Notes: generated by a model from the letters alone, not told the origin. 64,000 nucleotides of DNA from Escherichia coli (GCF_013122565.1 NZ_CP053258.1), one strand, 5' to 3'. Positions 16,336 through 60,250 are shown, counted from the stretch's first letter. Made by a program: numbers and translations.

Positions 16336-16434
16336 CGCCTGATGCGCTACGCTTATCAGGCCTACGTCATATTGCAATTTATTGAATTTGCACGAACTTG
16401 TAGGCCGGATAAGGCGTTCACGCCGCATCCGGCA
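16336..16434. repeat. BIME/REP palindromic units downstream of metJ
   Basis: Two inverted REP units (CGCCTGATGCGCTACGCTTATCAGGCCTAC ... GTAGGCCGGATAAGGCGTTCACGCCGCATCCGGCA). Confidence 0.85.
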
Positions 16435-30142: not shown

Positions 30143-30231
30143 CGCCTGATGCGACGCTTACGCGTCTTATCAGGCCTACGAGCCAATGCCATTTTGTGTA
30201 GGCGGGATAAGGCGTTCACGCCGCATCCGGC
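30143..30231. repeat. BIME/REP palindromic units downstream of glpK
   Basis: Two inverted REP units (GCCTGATGCGACGCTTACGCGTCTTATCAGGCCTAC ... GTAGGCGGGATAAGGCGTTCACGCCGCATCCGGCA). Confidence 0.85.
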
Positions 30232-30337
30232 ATCACGCAGACTCTGAAACCGTGCGGGGGCAACCCCGCACACATCAATAATCCCGCCCTTCCCCTGTGC
30301 TACACTTCGCGCCATTCCTTACTGCTTAGAGTTTGCT

Positions 30338-37083: not shown

Positions 37084-37247
37084 CGCCTGACTCTCTTATG
37101 TTGTGTTGTGATGAGCAAAGCGTGCCAGAAGGTTAACCAAACATTAAAGAATAAAAAAAGATTGGCTATAACTTGCGGGTATATGTTGGGGGTTAAAAAG
37201 GCGGAAGAAATCCGCCTCATATTGCTGACAAAGTGCGCTTTATCGAT

Positions 37248-37345
37248 GCCGGATGCGGCGCGAACGCCTTATCCGGCCTACAAAAGCTTGTAAATTCAAT
37301 AAATTGTAGAATTCATGTAGGCCTGATAAGCGAAGCGCATCAGGC
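37248..37345. repeat. BIME/REP palindromic units between sbp and pfkA
   Basis: GCCGGATGCGGCGCGAACGCCTTATCCGGCCTAC ... GTAGGCCTGATAAGCGAAGCGCATCAGGC. Confidence 0.85.
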
Positions 37346-42314: not shown

Positions 42315-42325
42315 ACTCCGCATTT

Positions 42326-42409
42326 GTAGGCAGGATAAGGCGTTTACGCCGCATCCGGCATTTGAGCAGGATGCCTGATGCGATGCTGGTAGCGTCTTAT
42401 CAGGCCTAC
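42326..42409. repeat. BIME/REP palindromic units downstream of cpxA
   Basis: GTAGGCAGGATAAGGCGTTTACGCCGCATCCGGCA ... GCCTGATGCGATGCTGGTAGCGTCTTATCAGGCCTAC. Confidence 0.85.
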
Positions 42410-42419
42410 ACTCCGGGGG

Positions 42420-48180: not shown

Positions 48181-51193
<3,013 letters not shown>

Positions 51194-51198
51194 ACACT

Positions 51199-51324
51199 GC
51201 CGGATGCGGCGCGAGCGCCTTATCCGGCCTACAGGTCGGCAACAGTTGTAGGCCTGATAAGACGCGACAGCGTCGCATCAGGCATTGATTGCCGGATGCG
51301 GCACGAGTGCCTTATCCGGCCTAC
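51199..51324. repeat. BIME with three REP units between rhaA and rhaD
   Basis: GCCGGATGCGGCGCGAGCGCCTTATCCGGCCTAC / GTAGGCCTGATAAGACGCGACAGCGTCGCATCAGGC / GCCGGATGCGGCACGAGTGCCTTATCCGGCCTAC. Confidence 0.9.
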
Positions 51325-51367
51325 AGGTCGTGCATCTGACAACACCGAATTTACAGGAACACAGAAC

Positions 51368-52192
51368 ATGCAAAACATTACCCAGTCCTGGTTTGTCCAG
51401 GAAATGATCAAAGCCACCACCGATGCCTGGCTGAAAGGCTGGGACGAACGCAACGGCGGCAACCTGACGCTGCGCCTGGATGACGCCGATATCGCACCAT
51501 ATCACGACAATTTCCACCCACAACCGCGCTATATCCCGCTCAGCCAGCCCATGCCTTTACTGGCAAATACACCGTTTATTGTCACCGGCTCCGGCAAATT
51601 CTTCCGTAACGTCCAGCTTGATCCTGCAGCTAACTTAGGCGTCGTAAAAGTCGACAGCGACGGCGCGGGCTACCATATTCTCTGGGGGTTAACCAACGAA
51701 GCCGTTCCCACTTCTGAACTTCCGGCTCACTTTCTCTCCCACTGCGAGCGCATTAAAGCCACCAACGGTAAAGATCGGGTGATCATGCACTGCCATGCCA
51801 CCAACCTGATCGCCCTCACCTATGTACTGGAAAACGACACCGCGGTCTTCACTCGCCAACTGTGGGAAGGCAGCACCGAGTGTCTGGTAGTGTTCCCGGA
51901 TGGCGTTGGCATTCTGCCGTGGATGGTACCCGGCACGGACGAAATCGGCCAGGCGACCGCACAAGAAATGCAAAAACATTCGCTGGTGTTGTGGCCCTTC
52001 CACGGTGTGTTCGGTTCCGGACCGACACTGGATGAAGCCTTTGGTTTGATAGATACCGCAGAAAAATCAGCACAAGTATTAGTGAAGGTTTATTCGATGG
52101 GCGGCATGAAACAGACTATCAGCCGTGAAGAGTTGATAGCGCTCGGCCAGCGTTTCGGCGTTACACCACTCGCCAGTGCGCTGGCGCTGTAA
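51368..52192 (+). CDS. rhaD: rhamnulose-1-phosphate aldolase
   Basis: [39 protein letters not shown]...; start refined (274 aa). Confidence 0.95.
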
Positions 52193-52201
52193 GGAGCAAA
52201 C

Positions 52202-52516
52202 ATGATCCGCAAAGCCTTTGTCATGCAGGTAAACCCAGACGCCCACGAAGAGTATCAGCGTCGGCATAATCCCATCTGGCCGGAACTGGAAGCAGTGCTG
52301 AAATCTCACGGTGCGCATAACTACGCCATCTATCTCGACAAAGCGCGTAATCTGCTGTTTGCCATGGTAGAGATTGAATCTGAAGAACGCTGGAATGCGG
52401 TTGCCAGTACTGATGTTTGCCAACGTTGGTGGAAATATATGACCGATGTTATGCCAGCTAATGCGGATAACAGCCCGGTGAGTAGCGAGCTGCAAGAAGT
52501 GTTTTACCTGCCTTAA
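52202..52516 (+). CDS. rhaM: L-rhamnose mutarotase
   Basis: 104 aa [46 protein letters not shown]... Confidence 0.93.
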
Positions 52517-52556
52517 TGAGTAGCGGTGCCGGAAAATATCCAGCACCGCGCCTTCA

Positions 52557-53951
52557 TCAGAAGAAGTATTTAAAGCGAACGCGTGCGCCGTAACGGTCAT
52601 CAGTATCATCACCGTGTTTTTTATCACCGTCGCTATCCAGAATTGAGTAATACGTCCCAAGGTAAATATTAAAGTTCTCCATATCCATCACATTAGCGAA
52701 CTGATATGACGCATGAATGGTGTGAATGGTGTACGTCCCTTCATCATCAATCCAGCAGTCGTTATCACAAACTACACCGCTGAATTCATCAATCTTATTG
52801 TGCGCGTAGATATAACCGAGCTCGAAACGTTTCCACAGCGCGTTAATCCCGGCAGTGAAATCTTTCTCATTATTAGCATCTAAATAGGCGGTATTAAGAT
52901 TAACCACAATGCCATTGTCCGGATCCGTTTTCAGGCCATTCCAGGTCATACTCATACCATAGCCGGTACGATCGGACTGATCGACAAAGTTACCCTTACT
53001 ATCGGTATAACCGTAAGCATTATTTACCACGTTCGCTTCCATCGCTGCGGAAACGGTGAATTCTTCCGTCGGCGACCAGGCAATTACCGGACGCAGATAA
53101 GCAACATTTTTCTGCTGCTCCATATCGCGTCCATGATAATTACCGTCATTATATAAAGATGTTCCGTCTTCAAGTAACGTGTTTAATTCAAAATACCAGT
53201 TATCGAGTTGTTTGCTGACGAGGAAATTACCGCCAGCGTTAGAACGCCCGCGGCCCTCTTTCATCATATAGATATAACCGCTGCCATCATCATAAAGATC
53301 GTTCGCAGTATTGCCGGAATGTTCAACAAAGGTATCCTGATTCAGCGGGAACATATCGTAGGCTTCAAAACGGCCTACTTTGACCTTCCAGTCGTTTTCT
53401 TTGCCAAAGAAGAATACCGCATCATCGATATTTACTGAACCGTGCATATCCCCCAGCGGTTGTGCGGAGAACCCGGCGAAATAACCATTATCCAGTTTTC
53501 GCATACCATCAAAACCTAACAGAATACGACCATTGAGATTCCACTGTTCATTAGTGGGATCGCTATTCACATCAGCGTTGGTCATTGCCAGCAGGCCATG
53601 ATTACTTTCCGCATCCATATTAAATTCTACGTCGCCGTAGATTTTTAAATCGCCATAACCTGAAAGCAAAAGATTAGGTGAGGTGGCATTTTTCTTTGCA
53701 GATTCCGCCGTTGTCTGTCCATTTACCGGCATATTGCCCTGGGCAGCCTTAATTTCGCGGATCTCAGCGGCTTGTTGTGTCTGCAGCTGTTTTACCTGCC
53801 CCTCTGCTTTTGCTGCCCGCATTTCTGCCGCTTCCAGGCGTTCTTCCAGCAATGCCATGCGTTGTTCCAGCGTTAAATGCTGTGTTTTTGCCATACCGGT
53901 ACTACATGCCAATAATAAACCGATGGCTAAAGATAATGTCGATTTTTTCAT
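52557..53951 (-). CDS. putative carbohydrate-selective outer-membrane porin (ScrY/BglH/LamB-like) with N-terminal coiled-coil extension
   Basis: 464 aa; signal peptide MKKSTLSLAIGLLLACSTGMA; N-terminus TLEQRMALLEERLEAAEMRAAKAEGQVKQL resembles the ScrY sugar-porin coiled coil; beta-rich body with alternating aromatics; C-terminal ...RVRFKYFF. Confidence 0.6.
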   Translation of the reverse strand: MKKSTLSLAIGLLLACSTGMAKTQHLTLEQRMALLEERLEAAEMRAAKAEGQVKQLQTQQAAEIREIKAAQGNMPVNGQTTAESAKKNATSPNLLLSGYGDLKIYGDVEFNMDAESNHGLLAMTNADVNSDPTNEQWNLNGRILLGFDGMRKLDNGYFAGFSAQPLGDMHGSVNIDDAVFFFGKENDWKVKVGRFEAYDMFPLNQDTFVEHSGNTANDLYDDGSGYIYMMKEGRGRSNAGGNFLVSKQLDNWYFELNTLLEDGTSLYNDGNYHGRDMEQQKNVAYLRPVIAWSPTEEFTVSAAMEANVVNNAYGYTDSKGNFVDQSDRTGYGMSMTWNGLKTDPDNGIVVNLNTAYLDANNEKDFTAGINALWKRFELGYIYAHNKIDEFSGVVCDNDCWIDDEGTYTIHTIHASYQFANVMDMENFNIYLGTYYSILDSDGDKKHGDDTDDRYGARVRFKYFF

Positions 53952-54428
53952 TATTTACGTTCCCTGAAATAAAGGAGACCCTACGCTTTCCAAAAGGAAT
54001 ACGTATATAGAGAAATATAAGGTGTGCACTTTCGAATTTTTAATCCAACTTCAGCAGGCCGATGGATAGTATCCCGCCGCATAATATGAGTAAATCCGCT
54101 GATTTCCTGGAACGTGAGGAATATAACAATAGTGCCGTTTTTAACTAAATATCGTAAAAAATATTAGATATGATTCACGCTGACTCATAAGCCACAAATA
54201 TAAATAACGTTTAGACAAATTATCTGAGACATTTAAACATTCACAAAATCATTAAATAATAACTCTTTATTCACAAGATTTATTTTACCTACTAATATGT
54301 GCCTTACGCCGCAAAATTTATCCTTCACTCTGCTTTATATTGTCACGACTTCACGACATATCCGCGCTCATCACAAACACGCCTCGCTATTACAATTAAC
54401 TGAAATATTTTTTCATGGAGTCCGATTT

Positions 54429-54875
54429 ATGGCAGCTCTTACTGCAAGCTGTATTGACCTGAATATTCAGGGCAATGGCGCTTATTCCGTTCTGAAGCAG
54501 TTGGCGACAATAGCGTTACAAAACGGTTTTATCACCGACTCACACCAGTTCCTGCAAATTCTGCTGCTGCGCGAAAAAATGCACTCCACCGGTTTTGGTT
54601 CCGGCATCGCCGTGCCGCACGGTAAAAGCGCCTGCGTTAAACAACCGTTCGTGTTATTCGCCCGCAAAGCGCAGGCCATTGACTGGAAAGCCAGCGACGG
54701 CGAAGACGTCAATTGCTGGATCTGCCTCGGCGTGCCGCAAAGCGGCGAAGAGGATCAGGTCAAAATCATCGGCACACTGTGTCGCAAAATTATTCACAAG
54801 GAATTTATTCATCAACTGCAACAGGGCGATACCGACCAGGTGCTTGCCTTGTTAAATCAAACCCTCAGCTCATAA
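54429..54875 (+). CDS. frvA: PTS fructose-like EIIA component
   Basis: MAALTASCIDLNIQGNGAYSVLKQLATIALQNGFITDSHQFLQILLLREKMHSTGFGSGIAVPHGKS...; 148 aa. Confidence 0.92.
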   Translation: MAALTASCIDLNIQGNGAYSVLKQLATIALQNGFITDSHQFLQILLLREKMHSTGFGSGIAVPHGKSACVKQPFVLFARKAQAIDWKASDGEDVNCWICLGVPQSGEEDQVKIIGTLCRKIIHKEFIHQLQQGDTDQVLALLNQTLSS

Positions 54876-54885
54876 GGAAGTGGCG

Positions 54886-56337
54886 ATGGAGTCATCCTTA
54901 CGTATTGTCGCGATCACCAACTGCCCCGCCGGGATCGCTCACACCTACATGGTGGCGGAAGCCCTGGAACAGAAAGCCCGTTCTCTCGGCCATACCATAA
55001 AAGTGGAAACTCAAGGGTCCAGTGGCGTTGAAAACCGCTTATCCAGCGAAGAGATTGCCGCTGCCGATTACGTGATTCTCGCCACCGGGCGTGGCCTGAG
55101 CGGTGACGATCGCGCGCGGTTTGCCGGGAAAAAGGTTTATGAGATTGCCATCTCCCAGGCGCTGAAAAATATCGATCAGATTTTCAGCGAATTACCAACA
55201 AACTCGCAGCTTTTTGCCGCAGATAGCGGCGTGAAGCTAGGCAAACAGGAAGTACAAAGCGGCAGCGTGATGAGCCACCTGATGGCGGGCGTCTCTGCGG
55301 CGCTGCCGTTTGTCATCGGCGGTGGTATCCTGGTGGCGCTTGCCAACATGCTGGTGCAGTTCGGTTTGCCATATACCGATATGTCGAAAGGCGCGCCGTC
55401 GTTTACCTGGGTAGTTGAATCCATCGGTTACCTTGGCTTCACCTTTATGATCCCCATCATGGGCGCTTATATTGCCTCGTCGATTGCCGATAAACCGGCT
55501 TTCGCTCCGGCGTTTCTGGTTTGCTATCTGGCGAACGACAAAGCGCTGCTCGGCACCCAGTCGGGTGCGGGATTCCTCGGCGCGGTGGTGCTGGGGCTGG
55601 CGATTGGCTATTTCGTCTTCTGGTTCCGCAAAGTGCGCCTTGGCAAAGCATTACAACCTCTGCTCGGTTCAATGCTTATCCCGTTCGTTACTCTGCTGGT
55701 TTTTGGCGTACTGACTTACTACGTTATCGGACCGGTGATGTCCGATATTATGGGCGGGCTGCTGCACTTCCTGAATACCATTCCTCCATCAATGAAGTTT
55801 GCGGCGGCGTTTCTGGTTGGTGCGATGCTGGCGTTCGATATGGGCGGCCCCATCAATAAAACTGCCTGGTTCTTCTGCTTCTCACTGCTGGAAAAACACA
55901 TTTATGACTGGTATGCCATCGTCGGCGTTGTCGCGCTGATGCCGCCCGTCGCGGCGGGTCTTGCAACGTTCATTGCGCCCAAACTGTTTACCCGACAGGA
56001 AAAAGAGGCTGCCAGTAGTGCCATTGTGGTCGGTGCCACAGTCGCAACCGAACCGGCTATTCCTTACGCTCTGGCAGCTCCGTTGCCGATGATTACCGCC
56101 AATACGCTGGCGGGCGGTATTACCGGCGTGCTGGTGATCGCTTTCGGAATCAAACGTCTGGCGCCGGGTTTGGGTATCTTTGACCCGCTGATCGGCCTGA
56201 TGTCACCGGTGGGTTCGTTTTATCTGGTGCTGGCGATTGGCCTTGCGCTAAACATTTCATTCATTATCGTCCTGAAAGGATTGTGGTTACGCCGCAAAGC
56301 GAAAGCCGCGCAACAGGAGCTTGTCCATGAACATTGA
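54886..56337 (+). CDS. frvB: PTS fructose-like EIIBC component
   Basis: MESSLRIVAITNCPAGIAHTYMVAEALEQKARSLGHT...; EIIB CPAG cysteine motif plus EIIC membrane domain. Confidence 0.92.
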   Translation: MESSLRIVAITNCPAGIAHTYMVAEALEQKARSLGHTIKVETQGSSGVENRLSSEEIAAADYVILATGRGLSGDDRARFAGKKVYEIAISQALKNIDQIFSELPTNSQLFAADSGVKLGKQEVQSGSVMSHLMAGVSAALPFVIGGGILVALANMLVQFGLPYTDMSKGAPSFTWVVESIGYLGFTFMIPIMGAYIASSIADKPAFAPAFLVCYLANDKALLGTQSGAGFLGAVVLGLAIGYFVFWFRKVRLGKALQPLLGSMLIPFVTLLVFGVLTYYVIGPVMSDIMGGLLHFLNTIPPSMKFAAAFLVGAMLAFDMGGPINKTAWFFCFSLLEKHIYDWYAIVGVVALMPPVAAGLATFIAPKLFTRQEKEAASSAIVVGATVATEPAIPYALAAPLPMITANTLAGGITGVLVIAFGIKRLAPGLGIFDPLIGLMSPVGSFYLVLAIGLALNISFIIVLKGLWLRRKAKAAQQELVHEH

Positions 56338-57397
56338 GTTACTGCAACAGTTGTGCGAAGCCAGCGCCGTCAGCGGCGATGAACAGGAAGTTCGCAATAT
56401 CCTCATCAAGAAGCTGGAGCCTTGCGTTAATGAGATCACCTTTGATGGTCTGGGCAGCTTTGTCGCCCGTAAGGGGAATAAAGGTCCAAAAGTTGCCGTT
56501 GTCGGGCATATGGATGAAGTCGGCTTTATGGTCACCCACATCGACGAGAGCGGTTTTCTGCGTTTCACCACCATTGGTGGCTGGTGGAATCAGTCGATGC
56601 TCAACCACCGGGTAACCATACGCACACACAAGGGAGTGAAAATCCCTGGTGTGATTGGTTCCGTCGCGCCTCATGCGTTAACCGAAAAACAAAAGCAACA
56701 ACCGCTGTCATTTGATGAGATGTTCATTGATATTGGTGCAAACAGTCGCGAAGAGGTGGAAAAACGCGGCGTGGAAATTGGCGATTTTATTAGCCCGGAA
56801 GCCAATTTTGCCTGCTGGGGCGAAGATAAAGTGGTCGGCAAGGCACTGGATAATCGCATCGGCTGCGCAATGATGGCTGAGCTATTACAGACAGTAAATA
56901 ACCCCGAAATTACGCTGTATGGTGTTGGCAGTGTGGAAGAAGAAGTTGGGCTACGCGGGGCACAAACCTCGGCTGAACACACTAAACCGGATGTGGTGAT
57001 CGTGCTGGATACTGCTGTCGCAGGTGATGTTCCGGGCATTGATAACATAAAATACCCTCTGAAACTGGGCCAGGGGCCGGGGCTGATGCTGTTTGACAAG
57101 CGCTACTTCCCCAACCAGAAACTGGTAGCAGCGTTAAAAAACTGTGCCGCACATAACGATTTACCGCTGCAATTTTCCACCATGAAAACCGGAGCGACGG
57201 ATGGCGGGCGCTACAACGTAATGGGCGGCGGGCGTCCGGTTGTCGCGCTGTGTCTGCCAACTCGCTATCTGCACGCTAACAGCGGTATGATTTCAAAAGC
57301 CGATTACGATGCTCTGCTCACGCTGATACGGGATTTTCTGACGACCTTAACTGCGGAGAAAGTCAACGCGTTTAGCCAGTTCCGTCAGGTGGATTAA
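56321..57397 (+). CDS. frvX: M42-family aminopeptidase/endoglucanase-like protein FrvX
   Basis: 358-aa ORF; synteny within the frv operon. Confidence 0.9.
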   Translation: MSMNIELLQQLCEASAVSGDEQEVRNILIKKLEPCVNEITFDGLGSFVARKGNKGPKVAVVGHMDEVGFMVTHIDESGFLRFTTIGGWWNQSMLNHRVTIRTHKGVKIPGVIGSVAPHALTEKQKQQPLSFDEMFIDIGANSREEVEKRGVEIGDFISPEANFACWGEDKVVGKALDNRIGCAMMAELLQTVNNPEITLYGVGSVEEEVGLRGAQTSAEHTKPDVVIVLDTAVAGDVPGIDNIKYPLKLGQGPGLMLFDKRYFPNQKLVAALKNCAAHNDLPLQFSTMKTGATDGGRYNVMGGGRPVVALCLPTRYLHANSGMISKADYDALLTLIRDFLTTLTAEKVNAFSQFRQVD

Positions 57398-59145
57398 TGC
57401 TAAACGAACGCCAGTTAAAGATTGTCGATCTGCTGGAGCAACAGCCGCGCACGCCTGGCGAGCTGGCGCAACAGACTGGCGTTTCAGGCAGGACCATCCT
57501 GCGTGATATTGACTATCTCAACTTTACCCTTAACGGCAAAGCCCGCATTTCCGCCAGTGGTAACGCGGGCTATCAGTTGGAAATCTTCGAACGCCGCAGC
57601 TTTTTTCAGTTGCTGCAAAAGCACGATAACGACGATCGGCTGCTGGCGCTGTTATTACTGAATACTTTCACTCCCCGCGCGCAACTCGCCTCGGCGCTTA
57701 ATTTGCCAGAAACGTGGGTCGCAGAGCGTCTGCCACGATTAAAGCAACGTTATGAGCGCACTTGCTGCCTGGCCAGTCGCCCCGGTTTGGGCCATTTCAT
57801 TGATGAGACAGAAGAGAAACGCGTTATATTGCTGGCGAACTTGCTGCGCAAAGATCCGTTTTTAATTCCGCTGGCGGGCGTAACACGAGACAACCTTCAG
57901 CATTTATCCACGGCCTGCGACAACCAACACCGCTGGCCGCTGATGCAGGGTGATTATCTCTCCAGCCTGATTCTGGCTATTTACGCCCTGCGTAATCAAC
58001 TGACCGATGAGTGGCCGCAATATCCCGGTAACGAGATAAAACAAATCGTTGAACAGAGCGGCCTGTTTCTTGGTGATAACGCTGTAAGAACCCTGACGGG
58101 TTTGATAGAGAAACAACATCAGCAAGCGCAAATAATTTCTGCCGATAATGTGCAGGGGTTGCTGCAAAGGGTGCCGGGTATCGCGTCATTGAATATTATT
58201 GATACGCAGCTGGTTGAGAACATTACCGGGCATTTATTACGTTGCCTTGCCGCCCCGGTGTGGATTGCTGAGCATCGCCAAAGCAGCATGAATAACCTGA
58301 AAGCCGCCTGGCCTGCGGCCTTTGATATGAGTCTGCACTTTATTACGCTACTGCGTGAACAGCTCGATATTCCCCTTTTCGACAGCGATCTGATCGGTTT
58401 GTATTTTGCCTGTGCGCTGGAACGACATCAAAACGAACGCCAGCCGATCATTTTGCTCTCGGACCAGAACGCGATTGCCACTATTAATCAGCTCGCCATT
58501 GAGCGCGATGTTTTACATTGTCGGGTGATTATTGCCCGTAGCTTAAGCGAACTTGTTGCCATTCGCGAAGAGATTGAGCCGTTATTGATCATTAACAACA
58601 GCCATTATTTACTGGATGACGCGGTAAATAATTACATCACCGTAAAAAATATCATTACGGCTGCCGGTATCGAACAAATAAAACATTTTCTGGCGACGGC
58701 ATTTATTCGCCAGCAACCGGAGCGTTTTTTCTCTGCCCCCGGAAGTTTTCATTATTCGAATGTACGCGGTGAAAGCTGGCAACATATTACCCGGCAAATT
58801 TGTGCGCAATTAGTCGCACAACACCATATTACCGCCGATGAAGCGCAACGGATCATCGCCCGCGAAGGCGAAGGTGAAAACCTGATTGTTAATCGCCTCG
58901 CCATCCCACATTGCTGGAGCGAACAGGAGCGACGTTTTCGTGGATTTTTTATTACCCTCGCCCAACCAGTTGAGGTGAATAACGAAGTCATTAACCATGT
59001 CTTGATCGCCTGCGCCGCCGCCGATGCGCGTCATGAGCTAAAAATATTTAGCTATCTGGCAAGCGTATTGTGTCAGCATCCGGCAGAAGTTATTGCCGGG
59101 TTAACAGGATATGAGGCATTTATGGAGTTACTTCACAAGGGGTGA
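57397..59145 (+). CDS. frvR: putative frv operon regulator (HTH plus PTS regulation domains)
   Basis: 582 aa; N-terminal HTH MLNERQLKIVDLLEQQPRTPGELAQQTGVSGRTILRDIDYLN; synteny. Confidence 0.9.
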   Translation: MLNERQLKIVDLLEQQPRTPGELAQQTGVSGRTILRDIDYLNFTLNGKARISASGNAGYQLEIFERRSFFQLLQKHDNDDRLLALLLLNTFTPRAQLASALNLPETWVAERLPRLKQRYERTCCLASRPGLGHFIDETEEKRVILLANLLRKDPFLIPLAGVTRDNLQHLSTACDNQHRWPLMQGDYLSSLILAIYALRNQLTDEWPQYPGNEIKQIVEQSGLFLGDNAVRTLTGLIEKQHQQAQIISADNVQGLLQRVPGIASLNIIDTQLVENITGHLLRCLAAPVWIAEHRQSSMNNLKAAWPAAFDMSLHFITLLREQLDIPLFDSDLIGLYFACALERHQNERQPIILLSDQNAIATINQLAIERDVLHCRVIIARSLSELVAIREEIEPLLIINNSHYLLDDAVNNYITVKNIITAAGIEQIKHFLATAFIRQQPERFFSAPGSFHYSNVRGESWQHITRQICAQLVAQHHITADEAQRIIAREGEGENLIVNRLAIPHCWSEQERRFRGFFITLAQPVEVNNEVINHVLIACAAADARHELKIFSYLASVLCQHPAEVIAGLTGYEAFMELLHKG

Positions 59146-59194
59146 ACTGTGTCGGATGCGCCGCATCCGACACTGCATTTATCATCAAAAACGT

Positions 59195-60250
59195 TTAACG
59201 CAGGCTATTATAGTCATCAACCATTTCGTTGTACTCGCGTAACGCGCGTGGAAATGAGTCTTCGACCATCCAGCTTGTGTTTGCATCCTGAAGATGCTCT
59301 TTATCCCAGTCAGAGTACGGGACTTTATCTCTGACGCGGCGAACATATTTTTTAGTCTCGAGTTGATACTGGTCTGCCGAATTAATGAACGAGAAATTCA
59401 TACCGCCTTTATCCGCTTCTTTGGCCTGCGCTACCAGCGTTTCCAGTTCAGAGACTTTCTTCATTGCCGCATCAACATCAAACTTCTCTTGCGATATCAG
59501 GTTATTAATTTGTTTCGCTGAAATCATGACTGCCAGAGAGTAGTAGTGGAATGTTTTCCCTTCTCTTTCTTCAATATTTTTCAGTTCCGCAAGCTGACGC
59601 TTATCGTTAATTTCCTGAATCGCCGCATGATAAGATTCTGCTACAGGTTCAAAGGCTTCCAGATTTTTTAAGAATGTCTGGTGCAGCGTTTTCCCTTTCG
59701 CAAACGCATCGTCTTTATAATTTTCCTGGGTGTAATATTTATCCATTTCGTTAATGGTATTACCCAACGCCACGGCAGCATCGATATAACTCACCGCCAC
59801 GCCATCAATTGGTTGCAGCGCAGGCGTTAACGCCACGACTCTTTTTATTCCTTTTTGACACTCAGAGAGATTGGATTCACTAATGCCGTAAATGCCATAA
59901 ACAAGGCTCTCTCTACCCGTTGGCCCCTGTTTAAAATCTTTCAGCCAGTCAGCGTAACGCGCCAGACTGTTCTGTACAGGAATCTGTAACTTGTTGTAGC
60001 ACTTGATATAGACATCCATTTTTTCGTCGAAAACCGCTTGTTCATCGACCACCGGTTGCGCAGGCGTTTCAGGTTTAACTTCTGCTTTTGCAACGGGAGC
60101 TTCAGTAGGTTTCGCTTCAGGAGCTGGTGCGGCAGGTTGACTATTGGCAGGCGGGGGCGTTTCTGTTTCGGCTTTTTTATCATCACAACCCGTGAGACCG
60201 AGGGACATGATGGCGACTATAATAGCGGAAGATAATAAATTCCTTTTCAT
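59195..60250 (-). CDS. yiiG: DUF3829-family lipoprotein YiiG
   Basis: 351 aa; lipobox MSLGLTGC; Pro/Ala-rich linker; convergent with frvR as in K-12. Confidence 0.9.
   Translation of the reverse strand: MKRNLLSSAIIVAIMSLGLTGCDDKKAETETPPPANSQPAAPAPEAKPTEAPVAKAEVKPETPAQPVVDEQAVFDEKMDVYIKCYNKLQIPVQNSLARYADWLKDFKQGPTGRESLVYGIYGISESNLSECQKGIKRVVALTPALQPIDGVAVSYIDAAVALGNTINEMDKYYTQENYKDDAFAKGKTLHQTFLKNLEAFEPVAESYHAAIQEINDKRQLAELKNIEEREGKTFHYYSLAVMISAKQINNLISQEKFDVDAAMKKVSELETLVAQAKEADKGGMNFSFINSADQYQLETKKYVRRVRDKVPYSDWDKEHLQDANTSWMVEDSFPRALREYNEMVDDYNSLR

Follow-up and report, generated by a model that had tools for sequence, protein, structure and literature searches.

The window analysed here is a stretch of 64,000 nucleotides from Escherichia coli (GCF_013122565.1 NZ_CP053258.1), given as one strand. 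On its minus strand, between rhaM and the frv genes, an open reading frame that starts with ATG encodes a protein of 464 aa followed by a stop codon. The frame is convergent with rhaM (52202..52516, plus strand) and divergent from frvA (54429..54875, plus strand), from which it is spaced by 477 bp; the ORF listing agrees in this with an earlier note, made from the sequence alone, that had read a 464-aa gene divergent to frvA at 52557-53951. The gene has a GC content of 0.43-0.46, and the rha and frv genes on either side of it about 0.55; in the AT-rich region immediately upstream of the gene it is 0.34. The gene and the parts of its product are located as follows.

52557..53951, minus strand: coding sequence of the porin, RafY family (ORF listing, Pfam Porin_8, identity to RafY, RefSeq name)
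53889..53951, minus strand: signal peptide, residues 1-21, with predicted SPase I cleavage between A21 and K22 (sequence; conserved A-K junction)
53739..53870, minus strand: predicted periplasmic N-terminal coiled-coil helix, residues 28-71, probably an extension of the ScrY type (AF2, Sugarporin_N)
53658..53738, minus strand: low-confidence linker, residues 72-98, predicted to be disordered (pLDDT below 50, AF2)
52560..53657, minus strand: predicted 16-stranded beta-barrel, residues 99-464 (AF2; aromatic C-terminus FKYFF)
53232..53369, minus strand: long loop between strands 5 and 6, residues 195-240, 46 residues (AF2 topology)

Its sequence places the product in the RafY family of outer-membrane glycoporins, as the chromosomal sister of the RafY carried on plasmids and an island. 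Pfam PF16966, Porin_8 ("Porin-like glycoporin RafY"), matches residues 104-464 over model positions 1-372 of 372 with E = 7.7e-154, and the same profile matches 45 of 45 aligned relatives; the earlier reading of the gene as a sugar-type porin is upheld by this match. The identity to RafY of the mobile rafR-A-B-D-Y operon is 79% over 450 aa. An NCBIfam scan placed the porin in no family, its single match being a chance coiled-coil one (E = 0.35), the LamB-family profile PF02264 gave no Pfam match to it at E <= 10, and a PDB search, in which the protein alone and a profile of 45 sequences served as queries, found no solved relative, 1a0s and 1mpr included. The RafY/Porin_8 family is small, amounting to 234 clusters at 50% identity among 1.84 billion representatives.

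The gene is routinely annotated, and its family is described, curated and provided with a characterised founder. RefSeq gives the window-type gene the product name "carbohydrate porin", annotated in thousands of genomes, while a comparative-genomics paper on O157:H7 names it "rafY2" and has O157 carrying rafY2 without rafRABD (PMC4809568). No functional study of the chromosomal porin, under rafY2 or as a carbohydrate porin near rhaM, was found in the literature searched. A cluster first taken for a common truncated allele (P0057) is not one allele; it is made up of partial sequences at contig ends.

The N-terminus of the protein, MKKSTLSLAIGLLLACSTGMA followed by KTQ, is a Sec-type signal, and the A-K cleavage context is kept in the orthologues, in keeping with the signal peptide that had been noticed earlier. 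The stretch LLLAC16 resembles a lipobox, and a lipoprotein was considered and rejected: the Cys is restricted to Escherichia alleles, the orthologues having LLLVANTGFA and then K at the junction.

AlphaFold2 (AF2), supplied with 45 aligned members of the family (24-85% identity), returned a model with a mean pLDDT of 80 and a pTM of 0.71. The coiled coil proposed in the earlier note is present in this model as the helix of residues 28-71, and in the sequence as a core with unbroken 3-4 spacing (L28, M32, L35, L39, A42, A46, A49, V53, L56), with further core positions at I64 and I67 after L56. By profile and alignment, this helix is probably akin to the N-terminal extension of ScrY: Sugarporin_N (PF11471) gives E = 0.08 only on the window porin, and among the 45 aligned family members it gives E <= 1e-3 in 6 (best 5.9e-07) and E <= 0.1 in 18. 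The N-terminal segment is clearly homologous among the enterobacterial members of the RafY family in the alignment; distant members of about 350-390 aa are without the extension.

Residues 99-464 form the beta-barrel body that had been surmised, with pLDDT mostly above 90. In the predicted model, the barrel topology is that of the general trimeric porins and not that of 18-stranded LamB/ScrY. Of the earlier description of the protein as ScrY-like, the N-terminal extension probably stands, and the assignment of the barrel to that family does not, given 16 strands and the lack of a LamB-profile match. The strand count given by TCDB for the RafY family (1.B.15) is also 16 (PMC4827864). The loop between strands 5 and 6 carries the invariant or near-invariant residues E196, A197, P202, D206, Y228, R234, G235 and R236, and is a candidate constriction loop like L3 of the general porins; going by where L3 lies in OmpF-type porins, it would be inside the pore.

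At the rhaM locus, the porin is found in 2542 of 5426 complete E. coli genomes (~47%). BL21, O157:H7 and ST131 carry it and K-12 does not: in the annotation of MG1655, frvA (b3900) and rhaM (b3901) lie 300 bp apart with no gene between them. The gene is therefore accessory, and K-12 has the short rhaM-frvA gap, both as the earlier note had stated. Two segments of the window are missing from other types of E. coli genome.

52518..54240, no strand assigned: porin and promoter region, 1,723 bp, replaced in K-12-type genomes (BLAST breakpoints, MG1655 annotation)
54411..59213, no strand assigned: frvABXR and the 5' part of yiiG, absent from ST131-type genomes (genome comparison)

The replaced 1,723 bp consist of the porin and 290 bp upstream, and what takes their place, as seen by BLAST against a K-12-type genome, is an unrelated 111 bp with its own rhaM terminator hairpin. 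A porin remnant was sought in the 111-bp K-12-type replacement and none was found. In the ST131-type genomes, the porin is still there, along with the sequence upstream of it as far as 54410.

Outside Escherichia, orthologues with 67-85% identity occupy the corresponding position. The gene rhaM follows downstream in convergent orientation in 30 of 34 orthologous loci, at a distance within 350 bp in 23 of these, and this convergence of porin and rhaM spans Citrobacter, Kluyvera, Klebsiella, Raoultella, Pseudocitrobacter, Superficieibacter, Trabulsiella and other Enterobacteriaceae; among representatives of Escherichia species, the scan covered E. coli and Escherichia sp. MOD1-EC7003 only. In Trabulsiella odontotermitis, the gene order (frvRXBA - porin - rhaM - rhaD - rhaA) is that of the window. 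Because the porin-rhaM convergence is conserved across genera and Trabulsiella has the same order, the porin looks like an old resident of the fdhD-...-rhaM neighbourhood and the K-12 state looks like a loss, not the porin like an insertion here. The earlier note, which had the porin "inserted" between rhaM and the frv operon, evidently took the event in the wrong direction.

The locus as a whole is laid out as fdhD - yiiG - (frvRXBA) - (azlDC, HTH-cupin) - (rafRAB) - porin, with rhaM converging on the porin, the cassettes in parentheses being variable. The upstream neighbour of the porin differs by genus and is frvA, the gene for the HTH-cupin regulator, or rafB. In every genus, the GC content of the porin lies 8-10 points under that of its flanks; thus the low GC belongs to the gene itself and does not mark a recent arrival. 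Between the window and ST131, dS is 0.218 for the porin, 0.183 for rhaA and 0.172 for rhaM, and a synonymous divergence this near to that of the rha genes fits long residence.

The region upstream of the porin and the junction downstream of it contain the following elements.

54113..54128, minus strand: CRP-like site TGTTATATTCCTCACG (single match in the 64-kb window, 0.12 expected by chance)
54089..54094, minus strand: putative -35 hexamer TTTACT (TTTACN exactly 18 nt past the site in 22 of 31 loci)
54066..54071, minus strand: putative -10 hexamer TACTAT (TAnnnT-like, 16-18 nt past the -35 in most loci)
52523..52549, no strand assigned: stable hairpin between the stop codons of rhaM and the porin (RNA fold)

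The 16-bp motif TGTTA-N6-TCAC(G/A) occurs in 30 of the 34 orthologous loci, 177-242 nt upstream of the ATG and regardless of which gene lies upstream. In the window, it has one mismatch per half-site (TGTTA, TCACG), its inner six bases are partly conserved across loci, and its half-sites resemble those of TGTGAACATCATCACG at rhaBAD in the same window, which we take to be a CRP site. The centre of the motif is at about -61.5 relative to the putative transcription start, and a centre at -61.5 is the geometry of class I CRP-dependent promoters. We infer that CRP binds here, although another regulator could bind a CRP-like motif; with the site conserved and in the class I position, expression of the porin probably responds to carbon limitation. 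With these elements, the 5' UTR would measure about 105-170 nt. A generic scan of the region for sigma-70 promoters and terminators gave no more sites than in shuffled sequence, and an Rfam scan and a small-ORF listing of the intergenic region returned nothing. The AT-rich upstream region could be subject to H-NS silencing under laboratory conditions.

Since the porin and frvA are divergent, they are not co-transcribed. In each of the two natural deletions, the K-12-type (52518..54240) and the ST131-type (54411..59213), a single unit is gone and the region upstream of the other is left intact, which is consistent with the porin and frv being two independent transcription units, with a boundary between 54241 and 54410. 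On the other side of the gene, the hairpin at 52523..52549 folds with -32.1 kcal/mol (z = -6.46), none of 200 shuffles having folded as well. It has no T-run, and from its fold and position it is a probable bidirectional terminator.

The porin is under purifying selection: dN/dS comes to 0.042 in the comparison with the ST131 allele, 0.057 with C. rodentium and 0.043 with Kluyvera, and the ORF is intact in 8 of 8 translated copies. This selection, together with the intact ORFs, argues against a decaying remnant.

Plasmids and a tRNA-Phe island carry paralogues with about 87% nucleotide identity, recovered in a search of complete E. coli genomes. In these clusters, the porin comes last in the order LacI-type regulator, alpha-galactosidase, MFS permease, GH32 and porin, the rafR-A-B-D-Y of the classical raffinose operon. 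The mobile RafY is 77% identical to the Escherichia chromosomal protein over the alignment and no more than 71% identical to any other sampled orthologue, and a neighbour-joining tree, drawn with no bootstrap values, places it as sister to the Escherichia chromosomal clade on a long branch. On that branch, dS is 0.95 and dN/dS is 0.14, versus about 0.05 for the chromosomal copy. This suggests that the mobile RafY came from a chromosome like that of Escherichia and has evolved at a higher rate since its capture.

Taken together, we consider it likely that the gene encodes a RafY-type outer-membrane channel that forms its own CRP-linked unit, is an old resident of the locus lost in K-12, and stands outside the function of frv. 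The Sec signal peptide would export the porin, which would insert into the outer membrane as a 16-stranded barrel, probably as a trimer that the N-terminal coiled coil keeps together on its periplasmic face. As in the homologous RafY, a glycoporin for maltose, sucrose and raffinose (PMC4809568), the channel would be wide and weakly selective, and would pass di- to oligosaccharides such as raffinose-family sugars, maltodextrins and sucrose, along with other solutes too large for OmpF/OmpC; once in the periplasm, these would be imported by whichever inner-membrane carriers the strain has. The class I promoter of CRP-like type would tie expression of this single-gene unit to carbon limitation, and the K-12 lineage would have lost the porin through the replacement deletion; the porin would not be a functional part of the frv operon. 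In this account, the analysis shows the family membership, the predicted fold, the distribution, the synteny, the purifying selection and the conserved motif upstream; the channel properties, the trimer, the control by CRP and the physiological substrates are what we infer, the channel properties by extrapolation from a 79%-identical paralogue on a long branch.

Three other partners for the porin have to be weighed, of which the raffinose genes fare best. The gene may be the porin for alpha-galactosides (raffinose or melibiose) of a formerly adjacent rafR-rafA-rafB cluster, left in E. coli as an orphan that may be cryptic or silenced. The rafRAB-like genes are the only neighbours whose function fits the characterised RafY, and they flank the orthologue in 9 of 34 species, being upstream in Klebsiella, Raoultella, Enterobacter sp. 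JUb54 and Superficieibacter and downstream in two Enterobacter spp. In addition, the characterised RafY closes the mobile raf operon, and the region upstream of the E. coli gene is AT-rich. Against such an origin, the porin, even where raf genes are present, stands 387 to more than 5000 bp from rafB and retains its own conserved promoter region, in 21 of the 34 loci the HTH-cupin gene comes next upstream and raf genes are absent, and a dN/dS of about 0.05 within E. coli is at odds with a decaying remnant. With its own promoter beside raf, and with most species having no raf genes there, the notion that the gene is merely the orphaned last gene of a raf operon was downgraded, and we hold this history to be unlikely. 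It overlaps with the preferred explanation as to the function of the channel and differs from it only in history and in expression state.

A second possibility, and the one raised by the earlier note, is that the porin is the dedicated outer-membrane entry route for the substrate of the frvABXR PTS, the two being co-regulated through the intergenic region between their divergent genes. The divergent porin and frvA genes are 477 bp apart, frvA directly adjoins the porin in 5 of 34 orthologous loci (Escherichia sp., two of Trabulsiella and two Enterobacter spp.), and frv is within 10 kb upstream in 13 of 34. Nevertheless, the gene for the HTH-cupin regulator and azlCD separate frv from the porin in 8 of those 13 loci, and in at least 19 species no frv lies near the porin. 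In the 5426 complete E. coli genomes, the porin was counted in 2542, an intact porin-frvA junction in 1378 and frvB-frvX in 4186, from which 1378 have both, ~1164 the porin only, ~2808 frv only and ~76 neither. Were the two independent, ~1961 genomes would be expected to have both, against the 1378 observed (counts without phylogenetic correction); there is no positive association of porin and frv in E. coli, and if anything a negative one. Furthermore, ST131-type genomes have lost frvABXR and retained a porin that is intact and under purifying selection; the conserved motif upstream stays with the porin, whichever its neighbour. The claim that the porin serves the frv substrate is thus left without support, and we regard a dedicated frv channel as quite improbable. 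Equally improbable, in our estimate, is a narrower form of it, in which the frvA-porin pair of Escherichia, Trabulsiella and two Enterobacter spp. is a real module whose channel admits a bulky glyco-conjugate for the frv PTS and the M42 peptidase FrvX; if true, it would be the first handle on the frv substrate. The adjacency is best described as a shared residence in a variable neighbourhood of sugar genes, and not as a demonstrated functional unit. A converse proposal, that frv is an E. coli-specific insert beside an older porin, was withdrawn, as frv occurs in the same neighbourhood in several genera.

Least probable of all is a role in the rhamnose regulon, with the porin importing rhamnose, or oligosaccharides that contain it, for the rhaBAD-rhaM pathway: rhaM is indeed its most constant neighbour, but the two genes are convergent with a strong hairpin between their stop codons and hence not co-transcribed, other operons stand between them in Pseudocitrobacter and some other genera, a search of the porin's upstream region for RhaS boxes, based on those of the window at 48363-48411 and on its rhaBAD and rhaT regions, found chance words only, and K-12 grows on rhamnose without the porin gene.

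If the porin is the RafY-type channel that we favour, BL21, O157:H7 and ST131 would have an extra large-channel porin compared with K-12, which could affect the scavenging of oligosaccharides. It could also affect the reception of phages and colicins, as well as the entry of antibiotics when OmpF/OmpC are lost, as in the case of the Klebsiella member of the family discussed below. A spare porin under CRP control that would alter nutrient and antibiotic permeability in about half of E. coli, like GlyP in Klebsiella, is, in our analysis, more likely than a module with frv. The comparative results are incremental, and comprise (I) the ancestral position of the gene, (II) its loss in K-12, (III) the conserved promoter of CRP type and (IV) its place as sister of the mobile RafY.

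Among known systems, RafY of the pRSD2-type raffinose operon rafRABDY (PF16966; TCDB 1.B.15) is the closest. Both proteins are 464 aa long, fall in the same Pfam family over their full length, and share the N-terminal coiled coil LTLEQRMALLEERLEAAE and the C-terminus FKYFF. Unlike RafY, the window porin is chromosomal, monocistronic and convergent with rhaM, and has no rafRABD; RafY is typically the terminal gene of an oligosaccharide operon, a trait that is not strictly defining, and the window porin is not. The CRP-like site lies upstream of the window porin and is absent from the 194-bp spacer between rafD and rafY, and it is solely for the mobile RafY copy that channel properties have been measured.

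ScrY and LamB (PF02264; TCDB 1.B.3) have a similar role in the passage of oligosaccharides across the outer membrane, and a superfamily analysis finds the RafY and ScrY/LamB families to be nearest neighbours (PMC4827864). ScrY has an N-terminal periplasmic coiled coil of the type that the porin resembles, the Sugarporin_N profile being significant in 6 family members; the ScrY/LamB barrels have 18 strands, versus 16 in the AF2 model of the porin. The 16-stranded trimeric porins OprP, Omp-Pst1, Omp32, PorB, OmpF/OmpC and DcaP of Acinetobacter baumannii are 7-14% identical to the window porin, in which Pfam Porin_1 has no match. The porin belongs to a different family from these, and its barrel is larger (~365 residues), with longer loops.

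Finally, GlyP of Klebsiella pneumoniae is a member of the RafY family like the window porin and is controlled by the LacI-type repressor GlyR. When derepressed, GlyP alone suffices for a gain in nutritional fitness upon the loss of OmpK35/36 (bioRxiv 10.64898/2026.03.29.715108). Its gene stands behind those for a permease and a hydrolase in an operon under repressor control, whereas the E. coli porin locus is without a LacI-type regulator. Distant relatives with 57-64% identity end other oligosaccharide operons, with an ABC transporter, GH13 and GH130 in Buttiauxella and with a permease and GH32 in Klebsiella, Raoultella, Erwinia and Rahnella. The layout of GlyP is that of a distant paralogue group with about 60% identity (RafB-like permease, GH32 and porin; loci L079-L098), and not that of the orthologues at the rhaM locus.

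Divergence is mosaic across window 48468..53951 when compared with loci L004, L018 and L027. The sugar porin gene (52557..53951, minus strand) is similar to the BL21 allele, with a dS of 0.05, and its neighbour rhaM has a dS of 0.175 against BL21. No complete E. coli genome exceeds ~98% identity across window 52100..54600. Taken together, this mosaic divergence and the lack of a closer complete genome suggest that recombination has occurred within the rha-porin locus.

Two intervals of the adjoining rha region also vary. Citrobacter, Kluyvera and Klebsiella have a gene for a fucO-like lactaldehyde reductase separating rhaD from rhaM, as does at least one strain of E. coli, CFSAN027350. The window and K-12 are without this gene at the junction, where rhaD is followed after 9 bp by rhaM.

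L005 2856..4004, and L006-L013: fucO-like lactaldehyde reductase gene at the rhaD-rhaM junction
Window 52192..52202: rhaD-rhaM junction

The second interval, between rhaA and rhaD, carries a REP/BIME-like repeat (window 51198..51330). It is a single unit in the window, whereas in L003, a genome of the K-12 type, several units follow one another in tandem every 92 bp, expanding the rhaA-rhaD gap to ~450 bp from 174 bp. Related copies are present elsewhere in the window:

near 42325-42410
near 30144-30232
near 37247-37282
near 16389-16434

Upstream of the porin, the palindrome GCTAAT-N4-ATTAGC overlies the inferred -10 region in Citrobacter, Pseudocitrobacter and Kluyvera.

~20-40 nt downstream of the inferred -35, in L022, L026, L032, L036 and others: palindrome GCTAAT-N4-ATTAGC

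The Escherichia version is degenerate (GATACTATCCATCGGC; equivalent window region ~54055-54075), and the palindrome may be an operator whose cognate repressor is no longer in use in E. coli. Within the signal peptide, codon 16 of the Escherichia alleles (window 53904..53906) encodes a Cys whose surroundings, LLLAC|S, resemble a lipobox, while orthologues from other genera have LLLVAN instead, with no such Cys. Such a residue could in principle divert the porin precursor into the lipoprotein pathway; nevertheless, it is probably irrelevant.

Arrangements around the porin differ further among other records. Enterobacter sp. kpr-6 and ENT03 (L030 and L039) share the order frvRXBA - porin - rafR - rafA - rafB, with the raf genes occupying rhaM's place downstream of the porin, making this a third way in which one set of cassettes is arranged. 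A record titled 'Chryseobacterium sp. 18061' (L040) places frvRXBA, azlC, an HTH-cupin gene, the porin and rhaM on one contig, its proteins being 54-88% identical to enterobacterial counterparts. The sequence is evidently enterobacterial, so the record must be either mislabelled or contaminated.

Finally, the nearest orthologue of the RafY encoded by mobile raffinose operons (L002 9003..10397) is, above all others, the Escherichia chromosomal porin (window 52557..53951). Nucleotide homology between the two ends at the ORF boundaries. Given this closest relationship, the long branch of mobile RafY and its raised dN/dS (0.14), the comparison suggests that mobile RafY was captured from an Escherichia-like chromosome and evolved faster thereafter.
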